Under the pieces are notes generated by a model. It was given only the letters and a program-made list of their open reading frames with translations, searched no databases and was not told the DNA's origin. DNA of 64,000 bases from Amoebophrya sp. A120 (taxonomy: Eukaryota > Protista > Dinoflagellata): positions 4,809,863-4,873,862 of the forward strand of contig CAJINV010000003.1 of assembly GCA_905178155.1 (NCBI GenBank). Direction: 5' to 3'. The translations under genes were made by a program, and so were the position numbers. Shown here one piece after another: positions 11,401-61,420 of this stretch (positions within the stretch are counted from its first letter, which is position 1; each line of letters starts with the position of its first letter).

Positions 11401-14400
11401 CGCGCAGACGGCGAATCACGTCGTCGAGCTTGTCTTCGTGTCGTTGACGTGTGTTCGGGCTCGAGTCCGCAATTTCTTTTTCTTTTTGCTGAAAGGTGTC
11501 TACCTCCGATAGCAGACACGTTATCTCCTTGTCCTGTGCGTCCAACTCATCCGATCGAAGCTTCAGGTCGGCCTTCCGCTCAGCTGCATCCCCCTCGGCG
11601 ACCTCGTGCGCTTGATCGCTGTTCTGCGCTACTAGAGGAGAAGGTTGCTGCCACGGTATGCGAACGTCTTCGAGGCCCATAGACTCTCGCTCGAACTCTT
11701 CGCTCGAGGCTGCTAGCTGTTCTGCCAATTGTGCGCGTTCCTATCACAGGAAAAAACTGTTTCACTGTGACGATTTTGGAAGATCTGCATCACAAGTTTG
11801 TTACACATGACATCATGCGTGCTTCCTAAGGGAAAACACAGCTAAAAACCCAATGTATTGCATGTGTAGCAAGACAAACACATTTGCGTTCCGTTCTATG
11901 CATCACAAGTTCACAGTGAAACAGTTTTTTCTTGTGATAGTTCCTGCTGAATCAGTAGCGCCTCCGCCTCCGCTGTTTGCTCGTCGTTCTCCGCGCGGCG
12001 CACAAACTTTCCCCCTTTGCCGATCCACACCTGACAAGAGTAATGGAGAAAGTGACTGGCTTTCTTTTCAAAACTGCATGTCATCGATCCAAATCAATGT
12101 GTGTGCAGAACATCACGCTTAGGAATTCCCAATACTGATGATGATGATGTTGGCAGTGTGCCCTTGAATATTCCCAATACTCAAATGAAAACAAAATTAT
12201 AATTCGGTCCTCTTACATCGATGTCCGACAACCGGTTTCGATCAGAATAGCCCAGCACACTGGTGTAGTAGTTCTGAACCCATTTTTTGATGTCAATCAC
12301 ACGTGCCGTGCCAGTCAGAGGGTAGATGAACTCCAAACCGTCGTAACGAACCCGGACGCCCGACACAGGAAAATGCATGTTCAATGTCATGTCGTGCGAG
12401 ACTGGGATTGCATCTGTGTGTGAAAGGAAATCAACATTGGCAGTAATTTCGTGTACAAGCATCGATACGCCAATTCTTAAATCTATTTTTATGTTTGTCT
12501 TTGTAACATCAAGTGAGTACAGTGCTTCCACCTCAGTCGAAGCACAAGTGTACTTGTATGGTGCCCTGCCTTCCATAAGTAATCACACTTCTCGAAAAAT
12601 TTGAACTTCCACCATTTCGACTTTTGTACTTAAAGGTATAAAGAACGCAAGCATACCAGCGGGTATCGGGCGAACCTCTTTCACTCCGGCCATGGCGTAT
12701 GGACCTGTGAACTTTGTCAGCACTGCATCAACATTTGCCGGCAATGGCTTCTTGGTGACACGTTCCCAAAGCGCCAAGGCGCGCGCCCGTAGACCCTGCC
12801 ACGCCTCGAAATAAGTACTGCACCCCATGAAGAAGACTTCGCCGGGACGGTCGCTGAAGTTGACCTGGACCGCGTTCTGAATTTCGATAACGCCGCCCTC
12901 TTCGTAGAAAGAGCCGAGCATTTCGTGCATGTTCAGATCTCTTCGTCCCACCATCTTTACCAGTTTTGTAGGGGCTGGTGTCGTTTCCGCCACTTCAGTC
13001 GTTTCCTCTGCTGCTTGTTCTGCTTGCACCATCGGCTCGTCCGACGCCTCGGTACTATCTGCGTTCGCGCTATCGTCATGCATGGATGAATCTGACTCGG
13101 GGTTCGGGCTGTCGTCTTCCATGGCAGCTGACTCGGCAGAGGGGCTTGTAGCGCTTTGAAGATCTTCGCTTTCTTCGACGGCACTACTGGTGGATCCGGA
13201 GAAATCCTCCGCGGGCGAGGACGCCTCTCCGCTTTCTTCCGATTCTGCCGCAGGACTACTAGCTGGTCCAATTGCAGTTTCCGTGGCGTTCTCTACTCCG
13301 GTACTCATCTTCTGCGCATCTTCCTCCTGGGTCGTCCCTGACGCCTGCGGCCGATTTGCCTCCTCCTCCCGCTGCTGTTGCGCTTTGTGGTTCCGTTCCT
13401 CCTCTTCTGTGAGCGGTTCCCACTTGTGGTACATAGTGAGAAAGTGCGTGGGATATTGCTCCTCCGTTCGCCCCGACTGGTCGATTTCGGTGTAGTAGAA
13501 GTGTCTGACCCGCGGCACCAAGTGCGCAACCTGTTCGTTCGGGTGATAGGGAACGAAAATCACCCGACCCTCGTACTGCACCTGCACGAGCGGCTGCGGC
13601 ACTGCGGGGACCAAGGGCACCTCAGCGGTCGCTTCCGAACTGCCGGCAGTGCTTGCTAGTTCGCTTTTGTCGTACTTATTCGTTTCGTGCTGTCCGGCTT
13701 CTGTCCGTTGTTTGCTTTGCGCGGTGTGGAAAGCCTTGTCCACAATGGACCGCACTAGATTTTTCACGCTCGCCTTCTCAATCGCCGCGGCTACAACCTG
13801 CTTCGCGAGGGCGCGCGGATCCTCGACGATGTCGTTGCCCACTTCTTCAGCAGGTACGGGATTATCATTGCCGACCGGTTTGCCGAGGGCCTCCGGAGGT
13901 GGGGATGACGCGTCCATTTCTACTGCCTTCATCACTTTCTCCGTCGAGCTCGTATCAACCGCAGTCGGCTGCGCGAGCAAATTGCGTTCCTTCTTGTCAA
14001 GCTCCAGACCGCTGAGCTCAAACGTCAGCGCATCCATTTGCTGGTCTTGCGCTCCTACAATTCGCGTATCTGTTCCCTCAATATCTCCTTCCGCCGTATA
14101 ATCGGCATCCAGAGACAAAAGGGGCGGCGTCGTCCCCGTCGGACTACCGTCTCCGTCGGGGGAAAGCGACGGGCTCTGGGCCCAAGGCGTGGCTGGACTA
14201 CTGCTCAGGCCGGGGCTGCATCCCGTGGGGCTGGCCTCGGTGGACTCTTGTTCGTAAGCGTCCAAACCGTGATTTTCGAGATTTTTCATGGGTGATGTGC
14301 AGGGACGCGGGTCGCCTGGGGGCATAACTTTGTCCACGTCAAGGTTTCCCAGGTGATACAAGCGGTCGCGGCTCCGCTCGAGCGCAGTTGCCGCGCTGTC

Positions 14401-14940
14401 TACTCCGCGGTTCGAAGTGGACAACGGAAGCTGCAGCATTTTCTCCACACTCCTGGCACCATCTTCGAACGGATGCGATTGCGCAGAAATGGATGTTGCA
14501 GTTGTTGTGCCTCTGTCTTCATCCCCACCCTCCCGCAAAGGGGTGCCGGACCGACTCTGCGGCAAATCATCTGCGTAGTGATTGTACCGCGGCTGGCGCA
14601 GGAACGATAGTGACGCTGCTTGCTGGTCCGCCACCGAGTGCTCGCCAGTAAGTGTAGCACCAGGTTGTAGATGGTCCTTGCTAGTACTGCTCGCACCGTC
14701 AACCTCTCCTGGCTCAGTTGCCACGGCTTGTTGATCACCGCCCGCGCCGCCGGCTGTCGATGTCAGTGAGCTGGTACTTCCGTCCAGCAGCAGCTGCCGC
14801 ACACGTGACTGGCGGGGGCCAGTTGACGGTGAAAAGGAGCCCTCTGTCGGCTTCGGCAACAATAGAAAGGGCTTGCAGAGCAGGCAAATGAGAGTAGCCG
14901 TCCAACGAAGCCACACCGTGTCGGGTCTCATCGCCAACAT
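8444..14940 (-). CDS. ~1954-aa multi-exon protein: N-terminal hydrophobic/signal-like segment, two ubiquitin-like-looking repeats, coiled coil, C-terminal AN1 zinc finger
   Basis: Exons 14940-12657, 12413-12217, 12030-11940 and 11736-8444 join in frame (5865 nt) via two GT-AG introns and the introner at 11742-11939 (junction LIQQE-RAQLAEQL); AN1 motif [27 protein letters not shown]...HLCDYDHK. Confidence 0.75.
11742..11939. mobile_element. Introner-like TIR element, family E (198 bp), non-canonical intron
   Basis: 29-bp TIR TATCACA(G/A)GAAAAAACTGTTTCACTGTGA with 1 mismatch; TSD GTTCC at 11737-11741 and 11940-11944; removal fuses two ORFs in frame. Confidence 0.93.
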
Positions 14941-15353: not shown

Positions 15354-16604
15354 TTAGGAAAACATGTCGTCAAGAAAATCCTCTGCAGCCCTGCCGGAAG
15401 AACTTGCTTTGTCAACACGAGCTCCTGGTATGGGCTTGGCTGCCATTCGCTCAAGTTCCAGCAGATCTGCCTCGTCAATGTCAGCGTCGGACAGAGGACC
15501 AGCTGCCGTTGGCTCAGCCCTGCTGCGCCGTTGCAGCTCCCCTTCTTCATCGTCGCTCTCTTCTTCCGAGGAGGACGAAGATCCGCGTTTTTTCCGCTTC
15601 TTCTTTTCTTTTTTTCGCTTCTCCTTTCTTGCTTTCTTCTCGGCCTTCTTCCTTTCTTTTCGCTTCTTCTTCAGATGCACATAGTTCAGCTGGAAAGCGC
15701 AGGCCACGCACAATTTTATCTTGACCAGCGCCTGCTTCTGCGCCCCTTGTTCCATGTACACAAAGTTGACCTCGTAGCTTTTCAGATGGTTGCATTTCTC
15801 GCAGTGCTTGCTGCCGCAGACAAACTGTCCCTTGCCCTGGCGCACTTCTTGCGCGGTGCGCCAGCGAAACCCAAACTGGTTCCGCTTGTAGTTGCGCAGG
15901 TCGCCCAGTACATACTCCTTAAACAACCGGTCGTAGTACTTTTGTGCCAGCTTGACTGCTGCGCCGCCGGCGCTGCTGTGCCCGCCAGGATCCTCGTCCG
16001 GAATGAACTGGTGGAATTCGCGTAGCAGGGCCAGGTCGGATTTCGGATCGGGTCGTTTCAGCACGCGCGTACTGCTACTCGCCGCAGCTGCGTGTGCTTC
16101 CGACTGGGACAGGTCTTTGTTGGCTTCCCGCCTCTGGTACTCCTCTCGGCTGTCGGCTAAATTGTACTGCAGTTGCTCCATCAGGAAGCGATGCTTGGCC
16201 AGCCGCCGGCGCTCCGCCTCGTCCTCGGCGTGAATCGTTTTCATCCCCGCCTCCGGCTTCTTGTTGTCCACCGCGCTAGTGTGCCAGGAGGCATCCTGGC
16301 CGAATGTGGTGCTCCGGGGCGGCAAAATTTTCTCCTCGCCGATTCCCTCCGGTCGCGTTCGCTGCCCCACGGCGACCGAAGCGGACGACGTGGCGTTCGG
16401 ATTTTGCAGCGAGATGTGCGCCCGTCCCGAAGCTTGCCGCAGCAGGTAATTTGTGCCGTCCGTGCCGGCGGTCGGGGGCGCGAAAGCCTTCCGTCGCTTG
16501 CCCGGACGCCGGAATTCGCTGTCCGAGGAATCGTCGTCCTCGTCCGAACCGCCGTATTTGTTCATGCCGCCGCCGCCGGCTTTCTGGTGATGAGAAGACC
16601 GCAT
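15354..16604 (-). CDS. FRA10AC1: FRA10AC1 family protein (spliceosome-associated)
   Basis: Motifs KYYDRLFKEYVLGDL, FRWRTAQEVRQGKGQFVCGSKHC and LKSYEVNFVYMEQG..KQALVKIKLC..CAFQLNY; exact start codon uncertain. Confidence 0.9.
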   Translation of the reverse strand: MRSSHHQKAGGGGMNKYGGSDEDDDSSDSEFRRPGKRRKAFAPPTAGTDGTNYLLRQASGRAHISLQNPNATSSASVAVGQRTRPEGIGEEKILPPRSTTFGQDASWHTSAVDNKKPEAGMKTIHAEDEAERRRLAKHRFLMEQLQYNLADSREEYQRREANKDLSQSEAHAAAASSSTRVLKRPDPKSDLALLREFHQFIPDEDPGGHSSAGGAAVKLAQKYYDRLFKEYVLGDLRNYKRNQFGFRWRTAQEVRQGKGQFVCGSKHCEKCNHLKSYEVNFVYMEQGAQKQALVKIKLCVACAFQLNYVHLKKKRKERKKAEKKARKEKRKKEKKKRKKRGSSSSSEEESDDEEGELQRRSRAEPTAAGPLSDADIDEADLLELERMAAKPIPGARVDKASSSGRAAEDFLDDMFS

Positions 16605-16991
16605 GTCGTGACTGAGAAAATGACTCAAGAAAAAAGTGTAAGTATTTATGTCTCTACGTGGTACTGCTTTTATCTCTAAGTACCGTAGCTAGTAACCTGT
16701 GGCTGTGCTACACTGAAAAACAAAAGCAATCAAAAAAATCGTTACTCGTCCCTACAAAAACAGTCTAAGTTTTTTATTCTATCTATCAATATATCGCCAC
16801 TTCAATCATGCGAGGGCCTGGTTACGGTTGGATCAGAAATAGCAACCAAGATTCTTTGAGATCGTCGCACGAAGGACTTCGACCTCAGAAAAAAGTCAAT
16901 TCTGTATCTGTTCTTTTTTGAGTTCATATCGGATCGCCCAATTTCCAACTCCGTTTTTGGCCGCATGCTTATGCTAGAAGCGGATGCACAA

Positions 16992-25325: not shown

Positions 25326-28300
25326 TCATGACTTTCGACATACACAGAGCCGACGCGTGGCTGCATGCTGCGCTTCACATCGTGGTACCAACGGGGCCCA
25401 ACCGACGAGACATTGCTTCGTCGTCAGAGCGGACGGGTTCGCAGGAACATAAGCAGGCAATTCCCGGCCCTCCTGATTTCCGCAGCCCATTTCACAGGGG
25501 AAGTGCTGCTGAAGGACATCGCACCGGTTTGCGAGGTGCAGGTCTTGCTCGACACAGCGCTCCTGATACGCATTGCATACCGTGTAGCAGGACGTCTGCA
25601 CACGGGGGGCGGCCCGAAATTCGTGGATTTTGGGATCGAATAGCATCTGCTTCTCTGGTGGCAGCAAACGCACAGCACCACTCGACCGTCGCTCGACCAG
25701 GACCACTATGGTCTTTTCCGCCCGCCAGTGCGCGCGCACCCACAAAACGCCCTGCCTAGCCCCTCGCACGTTATGGATTGCAAAAGTGTCTGGCTCTGGA
25801 AGGATGTGAACTTGTGATGCGCGTTGCGCATCTTACAAAAATCTGTGTTGCATGGCTTGCAAAAGCTGTCCATCTCTGGCCATGCTGAGAGAGCATTTCT
25901 CATGCAGAATAGGCATCAACAAGGGGCTGCAGAAGCTGTGATGCTCGGCCCTGCATTGCAGACTTGGCAAATCTCGGAATCTTCCAGACCCAGACATTTT
26001 TGCATTTGATACACGTGGTCCTTGTACAAAAGAAGCGCCTTCCGCACTTCGGGGTACTCCTCGCGACGGTAGGCTAGCATATAACCCGCTCAGGTGTTAC
26101 AATTTCAAACGTTACAATAGAATTTGGAACTTGTGTTGCAAAATCCGCAACATCTGGCCTACTCCCATAGGAGCGCGCATGACAAGTTTCGGAGCCCCAA
26201 ACCCCATGAGATTCTGACGAAATTTGTATTGCGAAAAGCCCAAGTCTCTGTATGATACTCATGCTGTTCATGCAAGACAAATTCCAGACTCTATTGTAAC
26301 GTTTGAGATTGTAACATCTGAGCAAGCCATATAGCACCAGAAGCTTTTCTGGCTCGTCCTGCGAGGCTATGGCAGTAGATCTCGGCCGTTCGGAATCCAG
26401 CTTGTTCTGAATTCGTACCCAGTCCATCTCCACGTTCGGGCTCTGGGGCACGTGTTCGTTGATGCCGTTCGCACTCATCAACGCATTCGGCGAATCGACC
26501 ACCGCAGCAGTCTGCAGAAGCTGCTTCTCCCACAATTCGTACCCCTTTGGGGTGACCAAATATCTGTAGTCATACCGATCCTGTGCCGCCGACGTCAAAT
26601 CTGTAGTTCCTTGGCTCAACAATTCGATACTCGGCGGGAAGAAGGTGCGTTGCCGGAGTTCATCTTGCAGCGCTGCGCCCTCATCTTTTTCACTGTTCAC
26701 TTTCATTTCTTGAGCTGGGCCAGCTGCACGTCCTCCGGGGTTGCGAGACAGAACCGTGATGGGTGACCACTGTGCACGCAGGATTTTTTGCGCAGCGTCG
26801 GGAACCGCGAGATCGAAGCGCACAGTCAGGTGCTGCGGCATCAGTGCCATATCTGCGAGTCGCTTTTTGTGCTCCGCGCGCGTCACCGTGCTCCCCTTCG
26901 CATTGCCGACGTGATGGGTCCGCGGTACTTCCGGATACACGCAGTCGCCGAGGGGAAGCAAACGTATCCAGTGGTCCCAGCCTGTCGAAGGATAGTGCTG
27001 CCACTGTGACAGCACCTTCTCCATGATGATTTTCCGGTGGCTCATCCAGCCGAGACCAGGAAAGAAATCCGTCCGCCAGATGCGGCGCGGGTCGCGCGCA
27101 CTGTTTTTGAATCCGTTGTCGTTCCACCCGGAAGCGCACCAGACGTTCGTGTGCTGGTAGTTGTCAATCAAAACCTCCATACCGCGGAAAAAGTGAAACA
27201 AATCGGGCCCGATGCTGAGGTCGTCCTCGAGAAAGACACCCCAGGGCGCCACGGTAAACGCTTTGCGCAACGCGCAGTGGTAGTGGCGCTGAATCGGATC
27301 GTAGACCCGGAAAAAGTCCGTGTTTTTGTTGACACCTGATAGCACCGGACGCCCCCAATCGTGGCCCGCACAGTTAAACAGATTCGGCTCCAGTAGATCT
27401 GCGGCGGTCGCTTTTTCCTCCTCCCGTGCCGTGGCGGCAGTTGGAGGTTGCTCAAAAGCAAAAGTCGTACTGAAGTCGATAACTTCGTCCTGCCCCACCG
27501 CGGGTTTCTGGCGGGGACTGTGAAAAACGAGACGCCGCTGGCGGGAATTCGCACTGAGGTACTTTTCCCGCAAGTATTTTTTCAGGTGCGCAACAGACTG
27601 GGTCGCATCGTAGCTGATCACAATGCGAAAGCGGCTGTCGTCCACACCGGGGGCACGAACCACGCTTTCCAACAGCTCCGGCAGGCGACACTCAGTGGGT
27701 TTCACAAATACGTGCGTCAAAATCGTCACGACGACCTCCAGCCCAACGCTGGTCGTTGCGGTTTCGCGTGCCCTTTTTCTAGCGCTTCCGCGAAGTCGTG
27801 AGGAGGAAAATTCGTGGGGTGTTTCTTCGGAGCGTTGCACAATGCCCAGAGAGTCCTTGGCGAGGTCCTCTGGTGATGCAGCTTCACTCGTCTTTATTGC
27901 CGGCAACATCGGAGCCGCTGGCTCCGGGGCGAACGACTTTTTTCTGGCAACGGCCGGGCCCAGGAGAGCAGACTGGTCCTCCCGCAGCGCTGCTATAGCT
28001 GCGCTCCGGTCCTTCTCACGAACGGCACGGTAGGGATCTGGGGGAACGAAAACTGCTGCGCGTTTCCGGTCGCGAATTTTCTTGCTACAACGCAACTCTT
28101 TTACGTAGGACGCGGACCCACTTTTCGGCTGCATTAAAACTTTTTTGAGCCACGCTTCCGCCAGCGGGTCGTTCGGTGCCGCCGCACTGTGTTTCTCAAG
28201 TTCCCACTGTCGATTGATATCTATCAGCCTTTGCTTTGCCCCTTCCGGCGGCTCCTTCTCCTGTGATATTCTACGAAGTTCGCAATGATCACCCCCTCCG

Positions 28301-33922: not shown

Positions 33923-36900
33923 TCATTCGTCTTCGCCCTCCTCCTCTTCTTCTCCCTCCGCAGCTTCTGCCGGCGCTGCAGCGTCTCCCCCCGCAACCGG
34001 TGTTGCTATAGGCAGACTACCCGCAGCCGCAGCCACTGGCGGTGGCGCCACGGCAGCGAGTGCAGAACCTGCAGGCGCTCCCGAGGATCCCGCCGACGAC
34101 CCGACAATCGGCCCTGGCGGCTCTGCAGGACCCAGGGTTAAACGATGAGCCTGGATGGCGTGGGCCACGCCCGTGCAGAAGGTGCTCACGTCGAAGTTCT
34201 CCTCGTTCCACATCTCAGCGCGCGAATGATGATGAAAGGTATTCGCGTGCTCGGGCTCCAACTGCCGCACGAAGCTCTGCTGCACGGCCTCGCACAGGCT
34301 GCGTTCCCGGGGCAGTTCTGCAGTCGAGCACACGGACTTCATCCGAGCCCCAACGAGACTAGGGTCGCCGTCAACCGAAAGAATCACCGAGACGACCATC
34401 TCCTGGCATACCGCGAAAAAGTCGGGGTCGGTATGCTGTGGAAATAGTCAAACACATTGTGATTGCAGATTTTGATATAGCATGATGTACACCGTTATGA
34501 AACAAAAACATGCTACCGAAGAAAAGAAAGAAAAGAAAGATAACAAGCTGCTTCAACATCTTCTAGCAAAAAGCGGCGGCTCTGTTGACACCTGTATATC
34601 GCTATCGTCAACAGAAATCTGTGTGCGCAACATCGGTGGGTGTGCGAAGGGAATCGCACCGCACTGCATGTTGCCGTCACGCTCCCCCCATTCACACATT
34701 TCCGTGTCCGGAGCGTGTGGCAGACGGTACTGGACGCAGTTCTCCTTGCTTGCAAACTCAGCACAGAACCCCGTACGCGTGACACAGGAAGTGCCATTCA
34801 CGTCAACTGCACAGGCCACTTCAGCAGCGCACTGTCCAGGCGCCAGCGCGGCGCAAGCGTCCGTCACGCACGCCCTTTCGTGCTTCCACACGCACATCTT
34901 CTGCGGGTCTGGCAAGGTGCTTCCGGCCGCCGTCGCGTTGGATGTACTAGCAGTAGAGAAACCTGGAGTGCTGGCGCCACTGAATACCAGAGACCCACCC
35001 GCACCGCACGTCGCCTTGGTAGTGTGCGTCGCACAGGCGTCGAAAAGACAGCGGTTGTTGCGCCACGCGCAGCCGTCGCGTAGACCGTGAGCGGAGCATG
35101 CAAATGAGTCGGAAAACTGCTGACACAGGTCCGTGTCGCACTTCTGGGTCCCCGCCGACCACTTGCACCACGGTTTGTGGGTGTCACAGGACTCTTTTTG
35201 GTCGTAGTGGGGGCAGGCGTTCACGAAGCAGACATTGGTTTCCGCGTTCCACAAACAGGATGAACCTTGTGGTCCACCTCCGGTAGAAGTGAGCTGACAG
35301 TCTGCGCGTGTCCGCGCGCGAGCGCACCCGGACTGGTCGCGGTGACATTGCGCGTCGCCCACACGCCATACACACCCGTGCGTCGGCCCGTGGTCGTTGC
35401 AATCGCTGACGGACTCCTTGAACGGGCACACATCGGTCGTACACAGATTCCCGGATGTCCACACGCACTGACTTCGATCATGGCGGTCCGGCATGTTGAT
35501 AGCAGCACGAGTGTCTTTGACCAAGAACCCTTTTCTCTCAAGCACGCGAGTGCTCTTCGACGCCATCTTGTGGGCAAGAAACGCAAGTGCCCCTCCTGCT
35601 CCGCGAGTATCCCCCGGACTGCTCGCCGGTCCGGTAGCGTTCGGTTTGATGTTCATGCCCCCACCTTCGTCCGCGTCACCGCCCTCACACTCCGTCAGGC
35701 TGGTGTGCAGACCGCAGGGGTCCGGACGACAGACTTCCAGGTCCCGGCTCCAGTGGCAGTGCGCTTCGTCGTCGCAGCTGGCCCGGTATTCGTGGCGCGA
35801 GCAGCTGTCCATCACACACAGGTTGCCGGTCCAGTGGCACCCGGCGCGACGCGTGCACGGGTAGGGCGCGGTTTCCGTCATGCACCCGTCCATCACGCAC
35901 TGCCCCCCGGCGACTACTCCGGGCGCGAAGTGGTTTCGGAACGTGACCACCGGTTCGACCGCAGTCGCGATCCAGGTGCAGTGGTGGGCCATGTCGGCCT
36001 ATTAAGAGGAAAAATCCCCCCTCCCCATATCGAAAAGGTATGTTTCCGCAAATTTGTGTTGCTGATTTGAGACCTCAAATCACGTCTGTCTTGCAAGAAG
36101 GCAACTCCACAAGCTCCGCAGCATTGTGCAGGCGGTTTGTGATGCTGATGGGTCTAAAGCGCGGACGTTTCTCATGCTAGACGCCTAGGCCAGAACCTCG
36201 CTACTTAGGCTTACTTAGTATGGGGCTGCATTCCTCTCCAGCAAGACAGATCTTATTTGTGTACGCAAATCCTGCATCAGAAACTTCGTTTTGATATGGG
36301 GAGGGGGGATTTTTCCTCTCAATACGGCCTCGCACCCAGACACGGTTGTGTGCGTGTCGCAGACGGAGTGATGCTGCACCAGGCGGTATCCTGAGTAAAA
36401 ACGTCCCCACCCCAGAGTTGTCATGCAAATCCGCACGCCAAGAAAGTTTCTCATGCGGAGCCCCATGAGAAGCGTTTCCTAGTCGTGTTTTGAAATTTGT
36501 GATGCTAGAATACGCATGATATGCTAGATCTGTGATGCTGCTTAAATAGCAAAACAGGACTACACTACGACAGCAAACTTGTCATGCAAAACAGCCGAAG
36601 CAGGTTGATTTGTCTAGCAGATTTCCCATCTTGACTCTGGTGTGGGGACGTTTTTACTCAGGATAGGCGGCTGGCCGCGCGGTCGTGAAGATCAGGGGAC
36701 ATTACGACTCCAGCCCGGTCGTACACCGGCGCCACCGCTGGGTCGTCGCGCAGCCCGTGCTGGTACGCCGCGGTCCCGGGCACAAAGTCGTCGAGCGTGT
36801 CCGCGGTCGAGTCGGCCAAGGCGGCGGTTCTCGCGGCCACGTGCTGCGCGACGTCCTCCGCCATGTTGGCTGCCTCGTGCACGCGAGCACGAACCTGGTC

Positions 36901-37107
36901 CGACACGACGGCCCCAGACGCATCCTCCACGGCCCGGTCCGTCAGCTGCGACAGCGGCGACTCCACCTGGTCAAACGGATCCTCGTGCTGCAGCATGCGC
37001 AGCGAAAGTCCCTGGTCCATAAGTAGGACGACCCAGCTGCAGCAAATAACCGGTGCTACCAAACACCATCGCGAGCGCGCGGACGGACTTGCTGCACACC
37101 CGCCCAT
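33923..37107 (-). CDS. ~804-aa secreted or surface Cys-rich repeat protein with saposin-like Cys pattern and A/E-rich tail
   Basis: Exons 37107-36666, 36381-36325, 35994-34592 and 34435-33923 (2415 nt, in frame); hydrophobic N-terminus; many C-x-W-x(3-6)-C-x-x-D-x-C repeats; junctions AASR-LVQHH and GCEA-DMAHHC formed by introner removal. Confidence 0.8.
36000..36324. mobile_element. Introner-like TIR element, family C (325 bp)
   Basis: 32-bp TIR TATT(A/G)AGAGGAAAAATCCCCCCTCCCCATATC with 1 mismatch; TSD CGGCC at 35995-35999 and 36325-36329; frame restored. Confidence 0.93.
36387..36665. mobile_element. Introner-like TIR element, family B copy 1 (279 bp)
   Basis: 32-bp TIR TATCCTGAGTAAAAACGTCCCCAC(A/C)CCAGAGT; TSD GGCGG at 36382-36386 and 36666-36670; frame restored. 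Confidence 0.93.
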
Positions 37108-37981
37108 GCTCGCTCTGTTTCAAGTCGAACCAGGCAAGTTCATAGTGGCGGGGGCGATACAAGCGATACTACTTGTATCACACTCGTCCTGCCTGGTACA
37201 GCTTTTGCTGTGAAACGATGTTGAATTCTCTTTCTGTTCCACTCATGAACATTTTGGGCCTTTTTCGGCACGGAAAAAATCACAGGCGTATGTGTACTAA
37301 CTCGCTTTCGCACTCGCAGGCCAGGCAGCACAAACATGGCACAAGAACATGAAGCATGTGTGCCTCAGTCACATTCTCATCAAACTCCGTTTGCCCTCAT
37401 AAGTGACCTGTTTATATATCGGGCCCTTCCAGCACTCCGTGCTCTATGTGTTTATGAAAAGTCCACCAGGTTGGCCGCACTGTTTCTGTCTGAGCAACAA
37501 AGAACTGTGAGATCTACCCGGAAGGAAAATCTGCGTGAGCTGCTCCGCAAATGCTCGCTTTGTCCTTCGTTTTTCCTGAGCCTGAAGAGACTTACTTTGC
37601 GTCGATATTAAACGCTTCTGTATTCTCAGGGTTCGTGTCAGCCTGCATCTGAATGTAATTCCGCGCACATGTTCACTTTATATCGCGGCGAGCTGTTGTT
37701 TTTGCAACGGCAGCTCTAATTATTCAGTTCTTTGTTTGTGGTTTTGGCACTGTCTATGGCACTCGCACTCTTGACTTCTGCATTTGACAATTTAAAGAAA
37801 AAGAAACTACAACTACTGGCAGTCATGTACGAAACAATTGAAACGATTTCTATTCTCACACAGGTGAAGGGATAATTCTCGTACGGCAGCGAGCATGAAA
37901 CAAGTTAGACTTAGAGAGTAGAGCAACAGCGAGTAGAAGCTCCGCGATCCCTGCCCAAGGGGGCACATACCGAGAGCGCGC

Positions 37982-40900
37982 TCAGTACTGCCTTGGCGCT
38001 TGGTTTCGCATTTGAACGTGAATCCGCTCGACCAATTCCAAGATCCGTGTATTTTGGTCTTCGAGCTGCGCGACCTGGTCCTCTACACGCCGCAGCCGGC
38101 GCCAATCCGCACTGCGGTCTGGGGATCCGCGCCCGTGATCGGCGCGAACGCGCTCCTGCACCTCCGTGAGTTGCTGTATCGCGCGGAGGATATTGTTCAC
38201 TTTCGCCTCCACCCGGTCACTCGCTTGGTACCGCTCGGCAAACCGGCTGTCCAGCCAGCGAAACCGGTCCTGCAGAAAGTCGCTCATCTGCCGTACACCC
38301 TTTTCGAGGCCCGCTGAATCGAAGCCCTTCGACTGCACCAGCTCGCCCGACTTTTCCAACAGGGTTGGCGCCAGCGCCATTTGTAACATCTCCGCCGACT
38401 GCGCGATCTGGTTCACATCGCTTTGCGGCGGGCCGGAAACTCCCCCACCGAACAACGGCGCACCGCCGGGACCGCGGAGGTGCGGTGGTCCGCCTGCTCT
38501 TGCGGGACTACTCCCTCCCCCGGCGTTGAACTTGAAACCGGTGCGACTCGGGATCATGTAGTCCAGCAGAGTCTCCATGTTCTCGGAAGCCCGTTTGGAG
38601 TAGGCCAGGGTCTTCGTGATCATGCGGCAGGCCATAGTCAGTGTGACTTCCTCCTCCTTCTCGTTTTCCGAAGCGTCGTGGGCGATGGCCATCGAGACCA
38701 AATACTCCGAGTTGTACTTACTCATGCGGGGGAAGGCGCGGCGCAAGGAGCGCGCGGAGACAAACTTGTCCGGGTGCGCTGGGTCGTCGTCGTCCTCGAA
38801 CTCGCAAAGCAGGTACCTAAAGAATCGATGCTGACCAGCATTGGGGGTTCCACCACAAGCTTGTTCCATGAACAGACACTCTACTCCGAGACAAGGATCG
38901 ATACGCGACCGAGGGGGGGTGTCCGAGATAAAATTGCAATGACTGAGAGAAAATATAAGGAGCCGAGCGCCAAGCACAGGCGCGAGATGAAACATATCGA
39001 CCATACCAGATGTCCAAATGGCCCTTGGTTTCGTTCATTTGCCGGTAAGTAGAGAAAGTCTGCTCGATGATCGTTTCTGCTCCCACCTGCTTTGCGTCTG
39101 CCTTCGCGAACTGGTTCATGACAATGGCGAGCAGGATGTTGAACATGATAATGGTGACCGACCACTGGAAAAGCCAAAACCACAGCGTGCCGCAGGCGAA
39201 GTCCAGCGCAGTGGCGCCATCTTGTCCAATCAATTCTTGAAAATCAAAATCTCCGAGCAAAATGGCGAACCCGGTGTTCAGCGAAGACGCCAGATCACTG
39301 AAGGCACGAATCCGGGACCCGAACAACGTCTGTGCTGTTGCCATGAACGCCAGAAAAATCGTCATGAACACCACGAAAAAGTGCGCGATATCCGAACTGC
39401 CATCCACGATGGTGCGCGTCACCACCTCAAGTCGCGGGTTCGCACGAAAACCCTTGAAGAACCGCAACATGATGATTAGCAGGTAGATGCCTGTGGTCGT
39501 CGTGTGGGGGGAAAATGATGAATGGCTTTCCGGTAAGGAGGGGAAAGGAAAATTTGATATTGACTTTCCGGTACTTAGCAGAGCTGCGATAGACATAGAT
39601 ACGTTTTCTTCAGCAGCGAAACGAGTCGCAAGTCAAAGTCATCTTTTATACCGATAAAGACGCGGAGCAGCTCGCAGGTGGCCGCAATGCCGTCCGCGGT
39701 TTCGTGGAGGTCGTCGAGCTGCTGGTAAAGCTGCTCGTACGTGTCCACGTCCGGGGCGTTGTCCACAATCTCGGTTGGCGTCAAATACGTTTGCTTCACG
39801 GAACTGTGAATCATCTGGTCCGCGGTCCCACTAACTTGCGGGAGCTTGTTGATGTGATCTCGAAGCGGGCCGCTCACCGAGAGCGCCATCTGCCAGAATA
39901 TTCCGGACAAGACAAAGCCGAAAAGGATTGACAGCCAATCTACCTGTGGTTCCAGTTTCGCCGTGCATCACGAGTACTAGCAGGTAAGAAAAGCCGAAAC
40001 GAATTTGAAAATCCTGCATATCATTTTTCCTCCTCCCATCCAAGCAAAAGTCGCAACATGACAACTTTTGCGGTACTTACCATGTTCCAAAACTCCCAAT
40101 AGTCGAAGAAACCGTCAACGCCATTTTTGATTGCGGGAATCAGCTCCTTGGATTCCGATATCATCATCTTGACGAGCAACTATCAAGTGCAAAAATGTCT
40201 GGGTCTGGAAGAGTGCATGTTTGTCATGCTTGTCTGGCATGACTCTTAAATATGTCATGCACGCTACCCAAGAGCTCCATTTTTCTGTGATGCAGAAACG
40301 CAGCTTGTCATGCAGAATAGGCAACACCTAGAGGCTCAGAAACTTGTCATGCTGAGCCAGCATTTGTGGCCTCATCATGAGACGCCACCCAGCATCACAA
40401 GTTTCCAGACCCAGACATTTTTACATTTGATAGCAACAGCACGTAGACCAAGTCCAGCAGGTACATGGTCCAGTGATGGTAGGGGTCTGCTAGAAAACTC
40501 GTCAGGCGATACCGTATCACGAAGAGGCCCTGCCGCCGCCACAGCAGTTCGAGATGCATTACCGTGAACATACCGTAGTGGGCGTTGTAGAACAGCGTTC
40601 GTATACGAATTTTCGTCGTCATACGGTTCAACCATACCTGCAGGAATAGCATATGCGAATGGGTCACTGTCATGTGCATGACAGACGTAAAACAAAGATT
40701 GATCTATGTCTATGTGCAACTGAAATCTTATTTGAATGAGAAACGAACTTTTCTCGCCGTCATCATTCAGAAACGAAGCGAGAATTGTCAAAATCAATGC
40801 AATTCATTACCGACTTCGACAAGTCGTCCGCCTTTGCGCGCATGTCTGATATTCTTTCTTGGTAGAGAAACCATTGCGTGAGTCTGCCTGTCTTTCCGAA

Positions 40901-41851
40901 GTCTTCTTCCACTTCTGCACCGTCCATGGGTTGACACTCCCCGTCCAGCTTGCCCGCGAACACCGCCTCCGGGTTGTCGACAAAGGCCGTAATCAAAGAA
41001 CCGCGGTTGTCGTAATAGGGGATCAGCTCGCCGGCCTGCATGCAGTCTTCACTCGCGACTGCGAATTTCTGCAGTCCGACGCCGCCTATTACTTGGTTGA
41101 AGGACGCCAGACGGCCGGGGACCGGAAAGTCGCGCACCAGCTCAGAATTCGTGCCCTGGCGAAACATCGCGTTGACGAAGCTGGTACTGAACCAGTCCCA
41201 GAACGTTGGCACGTCGTGGACGTCCCGCATCAAAAACGGGCCTTCGTGGTTGGAAATCCCGCCCTCGCCCGAGATTTCGTTTTGAATCGCCGCGTGGAGC
41301 TCGTAGGTTTGCCGGATCTCCAGGTGTGACCCCATCCAAGCGAGAAAGCACGTGAAGAAAACGAACGTGAAGGGCAGCGAGAAACAGGCATCGTTTTTGG
41401 TGAACTGGAATCTGAGATACGTGACCAGTTGGGGTCGCGTGCACTCCTCCTGCGTTCTAACGTCCTTTGCATTCCGGTCCCCGCGGACCTCCTTCAGCAC
41501 AATGTTGAAGACTAGGGATCCCTGCGTAATCGCTTTGAACAGCTCGTCGACGGATATGACGCCGTTCCCGTCCCTGTCGCAGTCCTCCGCCATTTGCCGT
41601 ACATTCTCTTCGGTCAGTTTGCTCCCGGGCATCGCACAGAGCACTAAGAGGTCGTCAACCGTGATCTCCAACGGCTCCGGCTCCCCGGTGAGAGGATTTT
41701 TCCTGCCCACCTTCTTCGGACACAGACACTCGAACAGCTCTTGCACCTCGGGACGCGTAACGGTGTGGAGTGTATCCGGCGACTGCAGCTTCTTGTACAC
41801 CGGGAGGCGCCCCAGCTGCTTGATGATGCGGTCAAACGTCGCCTCTGCCAT
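37982..41851 (-). CDS. Polycystin-2 (PKD2/TRPP)-like cation channel with N-terminal EF-hand and C-terminal coiled coil (~983 aa)
   Basis: EF-hand DCDRDGNGVISVDEL; PKD-channel motifs NQVIGGVGL, WLNRMT, FWNMVDW, LRFFKGFRANPRL, LLGDFDF, FNILLAIV; exons 41851-40811, 40637-40433, 40175-40081, 39943-39652, 39490-39007 and 38816-37982 (2952 nt; four GT-AG introns plus one introner). Confidence 0.88.
40181..40432. mobile_element. Introner-like TIR element, family A copy 2 (252 bp)
   Basis: 30-bp TIR with 2 mismatches; TSD GCAAC at 40176-40180 and 40433-40437; removal gives LVYVLL-LVKMMISE in the first channel helix. Confidence 0.94.
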
Positions 41852-44399: not shown

Positions 44400-47300
44400 T
44401 CACTTGTAGTGCGCCAAGGTCAGATCGACGTCGTCCGAGGCGTCCACGAGCGACACATTTTTGTCTGTGTCCGCGGAGATAGTTTGCAAAAATTGAATGA
44501 CCTCCTCGATCGCATCGATGTCGGTTTGCTTGGCCAGCATTGCGTTGTTGTACACATCGATTTTTTGCGCGCAGTTCCCGTAGTCTTCCAGCTCCTGTTG
44601 CGCGTCGTCCTCCGCAGTCTCGGCGTTTTCCAGGGCCGTCTTCTCGGTGGCGAGCTCCTTCGCGAGCTCGACCTTTTCGTCGGTTTTGCCGTTCTTCAGG
44701 TCGGTGAGCTCCTTGTGAGCCTCCGTCAGCTCCTCCTTCTCCTTGTCGCACTTCTCTTTGGACTCCGCGGCTTCGGCGATGGTGTCATCGAGGTTCTTGG
44801 CCAGGTTATCTTTGATCATCAGCAACATGGTCACCACCTTTGCGCCCCCAGACCGGCGGGCGGCCTGGTCCGTGAAGTCAGTGCTCTGCTGTATCAAATG
44901 CAAAAGTGTCTGGGTCTGGAATTATGCGGGTTTTCTATGACTCATGAGGTCTGGAATGCAGCGCCATGACAAACTCTGTGAGATCTCTACCTCTAGCATG
45001 CTGATCCTGCATGAGAAATTCCCTCTCAACTCGGTAAAAAACGACGGCTGTTGGTAATCACGCAACACAGATCTCTTGCATGATTCAGATTTAGCATGAC
45101 AAGTTCCATCCTCCCAGACCCAGAAATTTTTACATTTGATATGCTGCTTCTTGCTCTGATCACTTTCCATGCTGTTGTACTTGTCGTTGTAGTCGGCCTG
45201 TTATGGGATTTGCAATTACAGATTTGAAGACAAAAGTACTTAAGTGAAGACAGAGAGTGAGAAAAAGGTGGAAGAAGCGGTTCCTAAAAAAAACATGCGG
45301 TTGTAAGTTTTAAACACATAAGACACCTTGCGGTGCATACAATTCAAACCTTCTCACGAGGCAACTCACAGTTCGCGTCAGTGAGTGTTTCAACACGGAC
45401 ACTTTCACACAACGCTATTCACTACCTGGAAGTGTTCGTGCTCCTTTAAAGCGGCCAGGGCATCGTCGCCGTAGGCCTCAGCCAACTTCTCCGTGGCGGC
45501 TTCCACGGCAGCCTTCTCTGCTTCGATCTCCTCCTTTTGGGTCTTGAGCGTGCTCGCGGTCTGGGCGCAGTTGGAGTCCAGATCGGCCTTGGTCTTCTCA
45601 TTCACGGCCAAGTCGCCAATCACCTTCTTGATTTCGTCGTCGACGAAGCGAATGTCTTGCGTCGTCGCGGTGACGGCGTCCTCCGCGGCAACGCGGGCCT
45701 GCGTCGCTTCCTCCTTGGCCATCTCAAGCTTGTGCGTCGTCTCCACGCAGGTGTTCTTGGCGTCGTCGGTTTCCTTGATCTCCGTCTTCAGCGTTTCGAT
45801 CATCTCTTCGCACTTCTCGACGATCTTCTCCGTGGCGGTCAGGCCGGCGGCGGACGTTTGGGACAAAAAGGCCATGACCGCGCGCTTCGTTTCGGACGGA
45901 AGGCGGTGGATCTGGCGGGCGATGCGATCCACGCGGCTGGTCAGCGACATGCGGACCTTCGTCTTCATGCCCTGCTGGAGGAAGTTCGGGCTCGCGTTGT
46001 TGTCGCCGGCGACAATGGACTCCAAGATCGGGAGCGTCGCGTCAATGGCAGTCAGCTCCGCCTCGGCGTCCGCGACCTGCTTGCCGTAGAAACTGGAGCG
46101 TGCATCGCAGTCCGCCTGCATGTTGTCGAAGAACTCCACGTCGACGTCCATCTTCTGCTTCACGGCATTGTATTCCTGGAGTGGGATTCGTTCACATTGG
46201 AACTTCGCACCATCTGCACAGATTCCATTACGCCGAGACAGTTTGTAGTGGCAACACTAGCATAGCAGCTTGGGCACAAAAAAATGAAGCTCGTCTCTTG
46301 TTTATATTCTTGAAATAACAATCGAAAGCGCAAGTTTAAATTCGTACCTCGACATACTCGCCCTTCAACTTCATGTTTTCTGCTAAGATGCCTTCTTGTG
46401 TGCGCTTAATGAACTCGTGCTCGGAGATTGCCTGTTCTGCCAGAAGCATCTCTTTCGTGTACACCTTTCGGGCATTCACGTTCTCGATAGTGTCCTGCTG
46501 CAGGTCTACTGCGGTTTGCTTTTTTAGGTCGATCAAGTACCCTGCTGCCTGGCCCATCGTGCCCTCGCCCACAGCCTTGCCTGTGAGTTGCTGCACCAAT
46601 GCCAGGGTTTGCTTCATCTCTTCGGCTTCCGCCTGCAAAAACATGCTTTTTGGCTTGGACAGCACGCCGATCGCTTTGGACAACACGTTCAGGGTCTCGA
46701 TGTTTTCGCCTTTCCTCTTGGAAAACTCCGCGTCATCCGTCTCCATGCGCTGTTTTAGAGTTTCAGCGAATCACTGCAGCAGCGAAAAAATGCATTTAAA
46801 TGCGAAAGGTGTTGTCTCGTCAAACTAAACTCAGATTTAGAAAGAATCTCTGTCTGCAAACCTCCGAAATTCTCAGTTTTTAAAATTTCGTGACATTATT
46901 GCTCGACACATTAAAACCGCGCTACGTATTGTATCCGCGCTACCTTGGTGAGTTGTCCCTGCTTTTTCTTCTGCCCTGCGATGTTCTTCGTTTCGAAGGC
47001 GATCTGGAGCTCGGCCTCTGTGATCAGACTGGAACTAGTGCCGATCAATTTCGTGAGCTCGGTTAAGCGCGTCTTTGCGTCCTCGATGGCCTTTCCTCGT
47101 GCGGCTCCCTCTTCCTTGCAAAAGCACGCAAATTGGTCATACATACGCTTGTCGCGGTCGTTATCGGAGGCGATGTCCTTCTTCATGTCAAGCAGCAACT
47201 TGATTACTTTTCCAATCGCGCCCTCGGTCCCGTACTTTCCGGTCTTTACAGCCACCGGTGGCGCGCTACCGAGTGCGTCTGCGGCCTGTTTAGCTTCCGC

Positions 47301-48140: not shown

Positions 48141-50010
48141 CTACTTGAGCAAAGGCGGGACTTTAGGTTTTCCGAGGAGGCTTGCCCGCCACGGATCTAT
48201 GAGGTAGCGAAAATGGTCGGCTTTCCTCCTCTGATCCAGCGCCGAGAAGTCCAGAGACGCGGTGCCATATACGCGATCCCGATTTCGGTGCGGAACTTCA
48301 GCGGGTGTTGGTGCTGGATACCACGAGTAGCCCGCTTCGGGATGAATTCCTTTTCGTGGATTGCATATTGCAGGCGGTTTCGTGGGCGGGGCGTAGCTGT
48401 GCTCCTTCGGACCTCGCCAGATACTGTGTTTGATGTTTGTGTTCGGTTGCAGTTTCAAAAATTTAAAAACTGCTCGATACTCTAAAACATCAACCACTTC
48501 TTTCAAATTTTCTCTGGTCAATCCCTCAGCAAATTTTGAAATTGCTAAAAAGTCAGTACGTCTTCTTCCGCAGGTCGCGCTGCTTTTTTCTTTCCGTGTA
48601 GTGACCCGACGCGTGGTTCTGCACTGGCTTCTTCGTTATTTCTGCAAATTTCTTCATGTATCTCGCTTTGATCTCGTCACTCACCTGAATGTTCTCTATC
48701 CACGCCGGAGCTCCCTTCGAAAGCTTTTGCACTGTAGTTTTTTTGGTGAGCAGAATCTTTAGATGCGACTTTACTTTTGATCCACCGCACGACAAGCAGG
48801 CGTAATGAGACAGCCAAGCAATCTCGAGATCAACACCAACTCAAAACTGTTCGACGCCGCCTACACATGACATGCTGTTCCTTGTCGTGCGCACAATCCC
48901 GGAATAAAATTCAACAATCTTAAAATACTTGGTGGATCTTTTGCCAGTGGTATTTTCTCATCTTCTCGGGGCTCGGGCTGCAGCCGTGTCCTTCCGACAT
49001 TTTCTTCATCTCCCGGAACGTACCCAGTCCAACCTGTTTTTTTGTTCGACTTCATCAAGAAAGCTCGCAGGCTGGCTCCTCCCAGAAAAACATAATGGGA
49101 TGCGGAAAAAAACCCCGCGTATTTTGTTCCATTCGCATTCGAGGGCACGAATTATTAGTACTCACCTGGTGCTTGTTCGACCCTCGCGTTTATCGTGATT
49201 ATTGAAGTCGAAGCCCGCCGATCGCCGTGACTCGGGGCGGTCTGGGGCCGTTGCACCCATCTCTTCTTCTTCGTCGCCGGGTCTGTTTCTCGAATCGGCG
49301 GCTCTCTTTTGTGCACCGCCGGTGCTGCAATTGCCGTCTTCGGGCGCGCTTGTCTATTTGGTTTCGGGGTCTCTTTCGGAATTGTTAGGACTTCTTCCGG
49401 CTGGGGTGGCAACTTTCCGGTGTAGTACATTACCGCTGTGGCAGATTCTGGCCGACACAAGTGTCCCACCTGTTATTGAAATAGTGATAAAGCCATCACG
49501 CGGCTAAACTACGCGTTTCCCCAGGAGGGGCGCCCCGGCGAAAACTTTGCGCAAGTCTTCGCCTCTCAAGATATCCTTTCGTTTTCGCTCTGTTCTTACT
49601 ACGCCATTAAAAGAAGCGCTTACCTTTTCCCCGCGGTCGTATTCGTTGTAGTAGTCAGGACGCGGAAACTGCATCCAAGGCGGGCTGGGCTGGTAGTTGT
49701 GTGGGCGCCTTCGGTAGGAGGGCCCTGCCGATTTTGGTCGCACAGCGGCCGCCCAGAGAACGTCGCTTGCATTTTCCGCTCCCATTCTTCTACTGGCCGT
49801 GTTTTTGAAATTCTTTTCGTAATTACTGTAGCCCCCTAGCCGCACGTACGCCTCGACAAGCTCCGACGGTTCGTTTGCTTTGCACAAGTGTGGTCCTCCG
49901 TCGGGTCGTTGTGATCGCTGTGAACCTTGTAATCCCTCAGCAGGACATCACCAGAGCGTTGGGTATTGTTTTCATCTGGCGTATTTCGCGATAATCGAAA
50001 TAACGCTGAG
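48141..50010 (-). CDS. Multi-exon hypothetical protein, basic, with RPxSA/RPxTA motifs (possibly flagellar/axonemal)
   Basis: Chain of same-strand ORFs (49504-49887, 49155-49469, 48861-49148, 48553-48795, 48141-48521); motifs RPKSA, RPKTA, RPQTA, TGWTGYVPG; exon borders not resolved. Confidence 0.5.
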
Positions 50011-59200: not shown

Positions 59201-61420
59201 TCATGGGAGTATGGCCCACTTACCCATGCCTATAATCGAAATATTGGTCCTGCAAAAGATGCACGTCGGGGGCGGCGACTTTGTTGCAAGCTTTATTTTG
59301 CTGTTGCATCCGCTGCGACTATAACACAGTTGCAATGCGTACCCGAGCTCCGCTTTGGGTTTCGCGAATTCCGATGCTAGCAAGGCAGACCAGGATGTCC
59401 CAGTCGATCTGTACACCAGAGATTTAAGGAGAAACACCATTATCTGCGCCACCCGCCAGAGATCTTTTGCAATCTGGTTACGATTGAAAAAACTGCAGGC
59501 CGCCATCTGCTCCGTGTCGATGACATGAAGCAGGAAAGGTTGCGAAAGCAGGTCCAGGCCGTTTGTCCTTGCTGGTGATAGAAACGCTTGTTGGCCTCTA
59601 TCTCTCGCGGACGATGGGGCAGATGTTGACGAAGACGACGGCGAGGGGGGTGATGCTGTTGTAGATCGTTTTGTCTCGATCATGAAATTCGCCATCATGA
59701 CGTCACAGTGTCCTCGGTATCGCTTGAAAAAACTGCACCAGAACCAACGTGTATGCTAGCGGACCACCGACGTTGATAACTCGTATTTTTATGTTTCGAC
59801 AGACCATGCAAGAGCTTGATACCGGTACAGTTTTTTCTCAGCTTACTCGATTATGGTCAAACAAAAACTCCAGCGCCTTCAAAAGCTGCAACGCAACGCG
59901 GAGGGCGAAAGAAAGCAGCAGCAGAGCCGGGGCCTCCGGTGCCTCGCAGCCGGTCGTGAACGACGTGGTGCAAGTACGCGAAAAATCATCGCTCCACGCA
60001 GCGATCTGCAAAACCGCATCTTGCAGAGTTGCTGCCCTGTCGTAATTTCGAATGATCAAAAAGCCATGCTCCTTCTGTCCAATTCTGAGGTGCGACGGAA
60101 TCGGTTTAAATTCAAACTCCCCAACGCCACAAGCATACACTCGCATGATCGTAAATGCGTCCTGGTCCTCTACGAGAACACTTTCTTCATGGTTGTCGTT
60201 GTCGTCGCTCCCCGCTGCTGTTGCAGGATCACCATCCTGTTTGTCGTGTCGGCCTTGCTGATCATCTCGTGGCGGGCGGGATTGGGAAGAAGTGCTGCTG
60301 GTCGATGAGAACCTAGCAGTCTGTCTCTGTTGACCACGTTCCTCATTGCCATTACTTTGCCACTGGCTTTCCCGGCAGTCCGTGTAGTCTGCGTCCACAC
60401 ATGCTCCGTAGCTGAAGAGAAACTGCGACGGGTATCCTGAGTAAAAACGTACCCACACCAGAGTCAGGATGGGGATTTTGCAACACAAACCTAGGAGCTT
60501 TGTGAGTCACGCATGACAAGCTGTGCTCTGCAGTGTAGTGCAGGTTAGCAAGTGCAGCCGCGTCACAGATTCATCTGCTCATCCTGCTCACAGCATCACA
60601 AATTCCAAAACACGACTGGAAATGGCTCTCATGGGGATGCGCATTACAAGTCTTCCTGTCTTTGCAAATCTGCATTACAACTCTGGTGTGGGTACGTTTT
60701 TACTCAGGATAACGGGTACTTCCAGTTCATTTCGCATCTGGAGTAGAGGTATCAAATGTCAAAATGTCTGGGTCTGGAAGAATGCAACTTGTCATGCTGA
60801 TTTTGGATTCTAAAAAAATCTGTATTGCATGAGCAGTAAAGAGAGTCCGCGTTGTGCTACACGGAAAGAGCATTTGTCATGCGGTATAGGCATCAGGAAG
60901 CCCTCACAAAATCTGTGATGCTAGGGCATGCATCACAGACATCAGGAGTCATGCAAAATGTGCATGACAAACCTAGCAATCTTCCAGACCCAGACATTTT
61001 TACATTTGATAAGAGGCCCTGGAGCTGTTCCGTTTGCTTGGCTTTATCTCCCCCAAATCCGTCGACCTGCCACGTTTTCAAGAGAAACTCCCCCGACAAT
61101 CTCACCACGTAGCGCTTCCCCCCCTCTTCCACGGTTGGGGATAGCAGTAATTCTTTTTCCAACGTTTCCTCTATTCCACCGTAGAGTCTCGCGCCAATCT
61201 TCAAATGCGTAGCAGCAGAGAAACTCCCTCGCTGTTCCACAACGAAGTCTTCATCTGTGGCATGCGTGCCTCCTACTACGGGAAACCTGAAGACCGAAAG
61301 CCTCTTGCTTTTCTGAATAGCTTCCGCGCACGCATCCTCAACCTTCGCCAGAGATCCAGTAAAAAAAGGGTTAGAGTCAGGGATGACAATAAAGTAGCTC
61401 GGTCTGTCATGCATCTTCAT
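59201..61420 (-). CDS. Divergent protein-kinase-like protein, paralog of the 55491-59015 domain, interrupted by three introners
   Basis: Spliced QLQGL-YSRCEMNWKYP-SQFLFSYG...FTIMRVYACGVGEF...LEFLFDHNR-GHCDVMMANF...LHVIDTEQMAACSFFNR aligns with the downstream paralog; start and end uncertain; may be continuous with the next gene. Confidence 0.7.
59718..59845. mobile_element. Degenerate introner-like element, family F (128 bp)
   Basis: Imperfect ~30-bp IR (TATCGCTTGAAAAAACTGCACCAGAACCAA versus TAAGCTGAGAAAAAACTGTACCGGTATCAA); near-TSD CTCGG/CTCGA; removal gives DHNRGHCDV, matching paralog DHNRAHCDV. Confidence 0.75.
60433..60711. mobile_element. Introner-like TIR element, family B copy 2 (279 bp), inverted relative to copy 1
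   Basis: Perfect 32-bp TIR TATCCTGAGTAAAAACGTACCCACACCAGAGT; TSD ACGGG at 60428-60432 and 60712-60716; frame restored. Confidence 0.94.
60750..61011. mobile_element. Introner-like TIR element, family A copy 4 (262 bp)
   Basis: 32-bp TIR with 1 mismatch; TSD AGAGG at 60745-60749 and 61012-61016; frame restored. Confidence 0.94.

Follow-up and report, generated by a model that had tools for sequence, protein, structure and literature searches.

Short elements with terminal inverted repeats (TIRs) in the dinoflagellate Amoebophrya sp. A120 are removed from RNA together with 5 nucleotides (nt) as introns without GT-AG ends. They lie in a 64,000-nt stretch of contig CAJINV010000003.1 (assembly GCA_905178155.1, positions 4,809,863 to 4,873,862 of the forward strand), which is referred to here as the window and numbered from its first letter. 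We identify them as A120 introner elements, and with a probability of roughly 0.55 we favor their removal by a relaxed major spliceosome that measures its cuts from the paired ends of each element.

Introner elements and their removal from RNA

A scan for exact 5-base-pair (bp) direct repeats bordering inverted ends identified nine elements of 198-325 bp with TAT...ATA ends in the window, and identical criteria found none in 200 block-wise Markov controls. An initial annotation, made from the sequence alone, had described ten elements with TIRs and differing 5-bp target site duplications (TSDs). Nine of these were recovered at the same starts with TAT...ATA ends and exact, differing 5-bp repeats, but the element at 59718 has TAT...TTA ends and a duplication matching at 4 of 5 positions. 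An eleventh element was located at 10213. The elements, which we name by their first position, are as follows; P0001, P0002 and P0013 are annotated proteins, and +5 denotes removal of an element plus 5 nt.

10213..10351: eleventh element, 139 bp, 3-of-5 duplication, TIR 18/20, absent from the initial annotation; removed intron 10209-10352, GT..CG on the coding (minus) strand
11742..11939: introner element, 198 bp, exact 5-bp duplication; in the P0001 gene (weak AN1 finger)
25772..26011: introner element, 240 bp; in the GT13/GNT-I gene, which lies outside the X1 contig cover; P0002 corresponds to the +5 splice
26080..26331: introner element, 252 bp; in the GT13/GNT-I gene; its TIR has no A-run at positions 11-13
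36000..36324: introner element, 325 bp; host gene cysteine-rich and surface-antigen-like; one register would allow GC..AG
36387..36665: introner element, 279 bp; in the same cysteine-rich gene as 36000; family of 60433, opposite orientation
40181..40432: introner element, 252 bp; in the PKD2-like channel gene; P0013 fits +5
44892..45141: introner element, 250 bp; family of 25772, 40181 and 60750 but in the opposite orientation
59718..59845: degenerate element, 128 bp, 4-of-5 duplication, TAT...TTA; removal judged from the frame
60433..60711: introner element, 279 bp; removal judged from the frame
60750..61011: introner element, 262 bp; removal judged from the frame

The inverted arms of the elements measure 30-71 nt, and the ends are predicted to pair in all eleven, over 21-30 pairs. 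An inverted-repeat motif of TAT, 7 variable nt and at least three A is present on at least one end of ten of the eleven, the element without the A-run being 26080, and the borders carry nine exact 5-mers and two decayed repeats (10213 and 59718). The elements have the attributes of MITEs (miniature inverted-repeat transposable elements), namely TIRs, a TSD, lengths of 128-325 bp, no coding capacity and many copies, and also those of A120 introner elements, namely the host, the inverted-repeat motif, 3-5 nt direct repeats, non-GT-AG removal from RNA and membership of families. A further candidate at 49200-49483 has TAT...ATA ends and an exact 5-mer, but its TIR match is 9/20, its removal restores no frame and it is situated outside the long frames; it is probably a chance occurrence. 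Separately, the coding-strand 5' end of 59718 (59846-59841) reads G|TAAG, the consensus spliceosomal donor. Removal of this element as a GT-AG intron would take 6 extra nt and shift the frame, and the element may be drifting toward a normal donor.

Direct evidence of removal is provided by contigs from four runs of one sample in one study, whose RNA origin is a guess, though they skip two GT-AG introns. At 11742 the contigs join 11736 to 11940 in all four runs, skipping 203 nt (198 + 5) with six ambiguous letters at the joint, and at 10213 they join 10208 to 10353, again in 4/4 runs, skipping 144 nt (139 + 5) with zero ambiguous letters. Single contigs in X2 and X3 span all four joints, those of the two elements and of the two GT-AG introns. 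The initial annotation had suggested looking for transcript junctions that lack an element plus 5 nt, and such a junction was found directly at 11742; its description of the elements as MITE-like, precisely removed non-GT-AG introns, as reported in Amoebophrya, agrees with these contigs. Indirect evidence comes from the X1 contig pieces, whose last positions, 35994 and 44886, leave five bases before the elements 36000 and 44892, and from length arithmetic, by which 614 nt are absent (330 + 284), matching 36000 and 36387.

The protein evidence is consistent with the same removal. P0001 and P0002, both Amoebophrya sp. A120 proteins at NCBI, align to the window exon by exon in protein mapping, although as annotation of the same genome they are not independent of its RNA data. 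A splice of +5, not +2 or +8, fits P0001 at 10213, P0002 at 25772 and 26080, and P0013 at 40181. In addition, two homologs with 33-36% identity align without gaps across the 25772 and 26080 junctions, and all six homologs examined are gap-free across that of 40181.

All ten elements described initially lie in long minus-strand frames. Retention breaks the frame in 10/10 cases and removal of the element plus 5 nt leaves it open, a test that fixes the extra length only modulo 3 (2, 5 or 8 nt, of which 2 and 5 were run). The open frames in 10/10 and the three annotated proteins that fit +5 agree with the initial proposal that deleting an element and one TSD copy restores the protein. The eleventh element, 10213, is in a minus-strand frame too, and this frame stays open with the element kept. 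By kind of support, the initial ten comprise one element with direct RNA evidence (11742), three with indirect RNA evidence (36000, 36387 and 44892), three with protein evidence (25772, 26080 and 40181) and three with frame evidence only (59718, 60433 and 60750).

Register of the cuts and related copies

Where a duplication is perfect the cut cannot be placed. The two copies at 10213 differ, however, and its joint is therefore unambiguous: the intron takes in the 1 nt that precedes TAT and the 4 nt that follow ATA (the -1/+4 register), reads GT..CG on the coding strand, and has the TIR's invariant T and A as its second and third bases (+2 and +3). P0001 is compatible only with cuts 0 or 1 nt before TAT at this element. 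Since 10213 is removed with a decayed duplication, an intact duplication is not needed, at least for this element, and it is removed although its retention would be in frame. One plus four equals the length of the duplication, so that cuts in this register would restore the original exon at any target site.

In the -1/+4 register the donors read N-TA, none of the eleven elements has GT-AG or GC-AG ends and none has AT-AC ends; canonical U2-type and U12-type terminal dinucleotides are thus absent from all eleven. The minor small nuclear RNAs are also reported absent from A120 (PMC7789003). Sliding the junctions on the coding strand produced no GT-AG pair, as the initial annotation had stated, but its further statement that GC-AG never arises was wrong, because GC..AG is available at 36000 (one of the ten). 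Sliding also gave GA..AG at 11742 and TT..AG at 40181. Codon-likelihood scoring of the mismatched duplications was uninformative on the register.

To extend the comparison beyond the window, one TIR pattern was run against a metagenome collection, where it matched at least 132 stretches; the 80 that were listed come from one assembly. Two matches in viral contigs, both inside one AT-rich phage helicase gene, were attributed to chance. The 132 stretches contain 293 distinct elements, 249 of them with exact 5-mers under a caller that demanded at least 3 of 5 matching positions. Strand was assigned with a coding model trained on the window, for which reason the strand check on the window is not independent. 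With this model 195 of the 293 elements were oriented, element-level and locus-level strand agreed in 103/103 confident cases, and 120 elements were kept as coding. Retention would be harmless in none of these 120 oriented coding copies. The duplication begins at codon position 3 in 57 of the 120 (p = 0.003), giving phase-0 introns, an excess that a target preference could also cause. Position 3 of the duplication was A in 43 copies versus 30 expected (p = 0.02, uncorrected for the five positions compared), a difference on which we do not rely.

Families of 96, 23, 22, 18 and 12 members were present among 206 sequences, and they occur in both orientations relative to transcription (55:41, 14:9, 11:11, 9:9 and 8:4). 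Summed DNA depth was 10^4-10^5 over the elements versus approximately 25 in their flanks. A profile of 226 elements has T1, A2, T3, G9 and A11-13 nearly fixed and alike at both ends, while TIR positions 4, 5 and 7 often mismatch between the arms. Thirty-six of 150 TIR ends were without a called partner, mostly near the ends of loci. The initial annotation had proposed a search for longer copies with the same TIRs that encode a transposase, and none was found in the 132 related loci: the five TIR pairs of greatest length (652-1384 bp) are composite or hold nested inserts, and their stop-free stretches reach at most 231 codons. At L108 301-952 and L029 3001-3972, elements of the commonest family are split by unrelated sequences, about 380 and 690 bp long and apparently bordered by longer direct repeats of their own, as nested insertions. 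The element at L026 3329-3608 has perfect TIRs and an 8-bp direct repeat; if cut at -1/+4, it would leave behind 3 surplus bases, which keeps the frame.

Candidate mechanisms of removal

Under the relaxed spliceosome reading, the elements would be inserted by a cut-and-paste or integrase-type transposase that acts in trans and staggers its cuts by 5 nt. In the pre-mRNA, paired TIRs would bring the ends together. The donor would be read as N|UA-U, with U+2 and A+3 as in GU-A donors and +1 free, and the acceptor would be set by a fixed 4-nt spacer, not by AG; cuts at -1 and +4 would take out exactly one duplication's worth. Whichever way an element lies, the A-run at TIR positions 11-15 would supply a U-tract some 15-19 nt ahead of the acceptor.

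We favor this reading because the register yields U+2 and A+3 as in the canonical donors read in the window (n = 7; T+2 in 7/7 and A+3 in 6/7), and because the same contigs lose both GT-AG introns and elements. Further grounds are that A25, with repeats beginning TTA-purine-purine and TT- donors as the only type reported (PMC7789003), also reaches U+2 and A+3, though its cut sits differently on the hairpin; that the A120 spliceosome is nearly complete, with 83 of 89 proteins and the U2, U4, U5 and U6 RNAs found, and U1 not found (PMC7789003); and that tunicates offer a precedent, in which the U2 spliceosome is described as able to process mostly non-GT-AG introns. Table S4 of Farhat et al. (2021; PMC7789003) lists, for nine predominant A120 classes, only NT- donors, GT-CG among them, in agreement with the -1/+4 register. 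The contigs do not establish the separate removal system suggested in the initial annotation: T and A at +2 and +3 of the 10213 joint resemble a spliceosomal donor, which makes a relaxed major spliceosome at least as likely.

A number of points weigh against the spliceosomal reading. The -1/+4 register comes from one element in one sample's contigs. Ends as free as these are hard to reconcile with known spliceosome chemistry: among 168 oriented exact copies +1 is A in 54, G in 50, C in 36 and T in 28, and all 16 acceptor dinucleotides are present. GT-AG ends occur in 5 of the 168 in the -1/+4 register, and in any register in 8 of the 120 coding copies against 4.8 expected, which is near chance. 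T1 is kept in 225/226 elements at the 5' end and 221/226 at the 3' end (p = 0.22), that is, without 5'/3' asymmetry, and G-U and A-C stem mismatches are equal (171 and 171), a comparison of low power where both orientations are common. As far as can be judged from these sequences, there is no sign of donor-specific or RNA-hairpin selection, and the conserved TAT may serve the transposase alone. The borders of Table S4, for A120 and A25 alike, may reflect the aligner's choice or convention. A similar spacer code in Euglena is assigned by its authors to non-spliceosomal factors.

The same features lend some weight to a separate, spliceosome-independent system, in which the TIR hairpin would fix how far away a structure-guided endonuclease cuts and a ligase would then join the exons, an explanation that we consider possible but less likely. 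The free +1 and acceptor bases without GT-AG enrichment, the use of both orientations, the symmetric conservation of the TIRs and the failure to detect U1 in A120 (PMC7789003) are all in keeping with it, as is the Euglena code N3-CDG...CH'G-N5-6, which is also defined by spacers and is reported to give circles. However, U+2 and A+3 in both A120 and A25 would then be a coincidence that a cutter guided purely by geometry does not need, and no candidate enzyme turned up, though no search was aimed at one. In its fullest form, which we entertain tentatively, this alternative would be a dedicated machine blind to junction sequence that reads an N1-TAT...ATA-N4 hairpin code in either orientation, making any exon position a free landing site for transposons and constituting a second, convergent origin of Euglena-type splicing.

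Excision of the elements from DNA in a somatic or transcribed copy of the genome, as for the internal eliminated sequences of ciliates, would mean that they are not introns at all. Transposon anatomy and precise loss would suit such excision, and 15 of 306 joints were listed; nevertheless, element+5 removal is in none of those 15, contigs of the DNA-like run X5 continue out of the flanks into the TIRs with no change from the flank depth (approximately 25), and we know of no nuclear dimorphism in Amoebophrya, leaving this explanation very improbable. Less probable still is that the joints are artefacts of reverse-transcriptase template switching and that mRNAs retain the elements or the genes are non-functional: a hairpin with direct repeats is the textbook setting for template switching, the RNA evidence consists of complementary DNA contigs from one sample and the 11742 joint has its six ambiguous letters, but no letters are shared at the 10213 joint, and the adjacent 3-nt homology would give a different product, so template switching there does not explain it, while retention breaks the frame in 10/10 elements of the window and 120/120 oriented coding copies, and distant homologs are gap-free across three junctions.

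About two thirds of A120 introns depart from the GT-AG rule, and what removes them is a real question. The -1/+4 register, the dispensable duplication and the independence of orientation together form a concrete code, open to a genome-wide check with data already available. Either outcome would be informative, whether a spliceosome that tolerates almost any terminal base or a non-spliceosomal system as a second, independent way of splicing mRNA.

Host genes and comparison with known systems

The host genes and frames, all on the minus strand, are as follows.

8447..14940, minus strand: P0001 host gene (1906 amino acids), with GT-AG introns at about 12031-12216 and 12414-12656 and two elements; single contigs lack all four
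25329..27909, minus strand: GT13/GNT-I glycosyltransferase host gene (P0002, 693 amino acids); the open frame reaches 29802
34556..37119, minus strand: host frame of 650 codons with 36000 and 36387, followed by one GT-AG intron at 34436-34591
37985..41632, minus strand: EF-hand PKD2-like channel host gene (P0013, 910 amino acids), with four GT-AG-compatible introns and element 40181
59204..61606, minus strand: host frame of 573 codons once its three elements are out; no known family

The sole protein match of the frame at 8447-11734 is P0001 and the best match of the GT13 frame is P0002. Three of the host genes had been described initially as recognizable; GNT-I/GT13 (E = 1e-27) and PKD_channel (E = 5e-19) are both above their Pfam cut-offs, but zf-AN1 in the P0001 gene, at 21.5 bits versus a cut-off of 27.9, is below it. 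The frame at 59204-61606 had no Pfam match and no homolog on search. Ordinary GT-AG introns accompany the elements, as had also been noted, in the P0001 and P0013 genes and at 34436-34591. One of them, the canonical intron at 12414-12656, begins G|TATGCTTGC, like the TATGCATTGC TIR family, and could be an old element that has become canonical. The protein of 34556-37119 has cysteine-rich repeats with a match to the Paramecium surface antigen domain (E = 9e-5) and is a candidate parasite surface protein. Further frames scored by Pfam are 15357-16688 (Fra10Ac1, E = 1e-41), 1783-2991 (short-chain dehydrogenase-like) and 3525-7229 (ABHD18-like). The long coding frames scored in positions 1-60000 are all on the minus strand, in 10/10 six-kilobase blocks (by the model trained on these frames), in agreement with the co-oriented gene blocks reported for Amoebophrya. 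Positions 62200-63300 consist of low-complexity tandem repeats that are apparently non-coding, with an AT skew of 0.56 in 62001-63000.

Because these elements were published for this strain in 2021, our finding is a rediscovery. Farhat et al. (2021; PMC7789003) described the A120 introners as having an inverted repeat of TAT, 7 variable nt and at least three A, with direct repeats of 3-5 nt (a 5-bp example is in the legend of their Fig. S19), a mean length of 240 nt and 1954 families. In their account these introns are non-GT-AG, supported by RNA and mixed with canonical introns, no transposase was found in A120 and the removal mechanism was left open; the legend of their Fig. 3 gives the border position as unknown. 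Relative to that description, the organism is the same and there is no difference in kind; here the border is fixed at -1/+4 in one element and independence of orientation is counted. Kind and organism being already known, what we add is a small constraint on cut placement, part of which their figures S19-S25 may already show. In the literature searched, which did not extend to subscription papers (Roy 2023 and Henriet 2019 among them), no paper settles how the elements are removed or fixes the register.

Gozashti et al. (2025; PMC12130899) attribute A120 introners in part to diverse TIR DNA transposons and describe one TIR family with integrase-like open reading frames, whereas no such long copy was found in the related loci examined here. 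Another Amoebophrya is reported, in a 2025 genome paper, to have canonical splicing and U1 (PMC12005148). A close parallel outside the genus may be drawn with the nonconventional introns of euglenids, for which a MITE-like origin, paired ends, cuts set by spacers, GT-AG introns alongside and circles have been reported (PMC12501133, PMC11282704). In euglenids, however, the code reads N3-CDG / CH'G-N5-6, a signature that the window elements do not have, and a purine follows the intron (PMC12501133); A120 by contrast has N1-TAT / ATA-N4, long TIRs and young multicopy families. In the tunicate Fritillaria borealis, non-GT-AG introns derived from TIR/TSD elements also lie beside canonical ones, but there the U2 spliceosome is implicated and the ends show AG-AC and AG-AT preferences, while those of A120 look free (PMC11282704, PMC13326754). 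The introners of Micromonas and Aureococcus are likewise non-autonomous DNA transposons, and one TSD copy is lost when they are spliced out; their splice sites are canonical, whether carried by the element or co-opted, so that they need particular targets, unlike the A120 elements (PMC9860276, PMC11282704).

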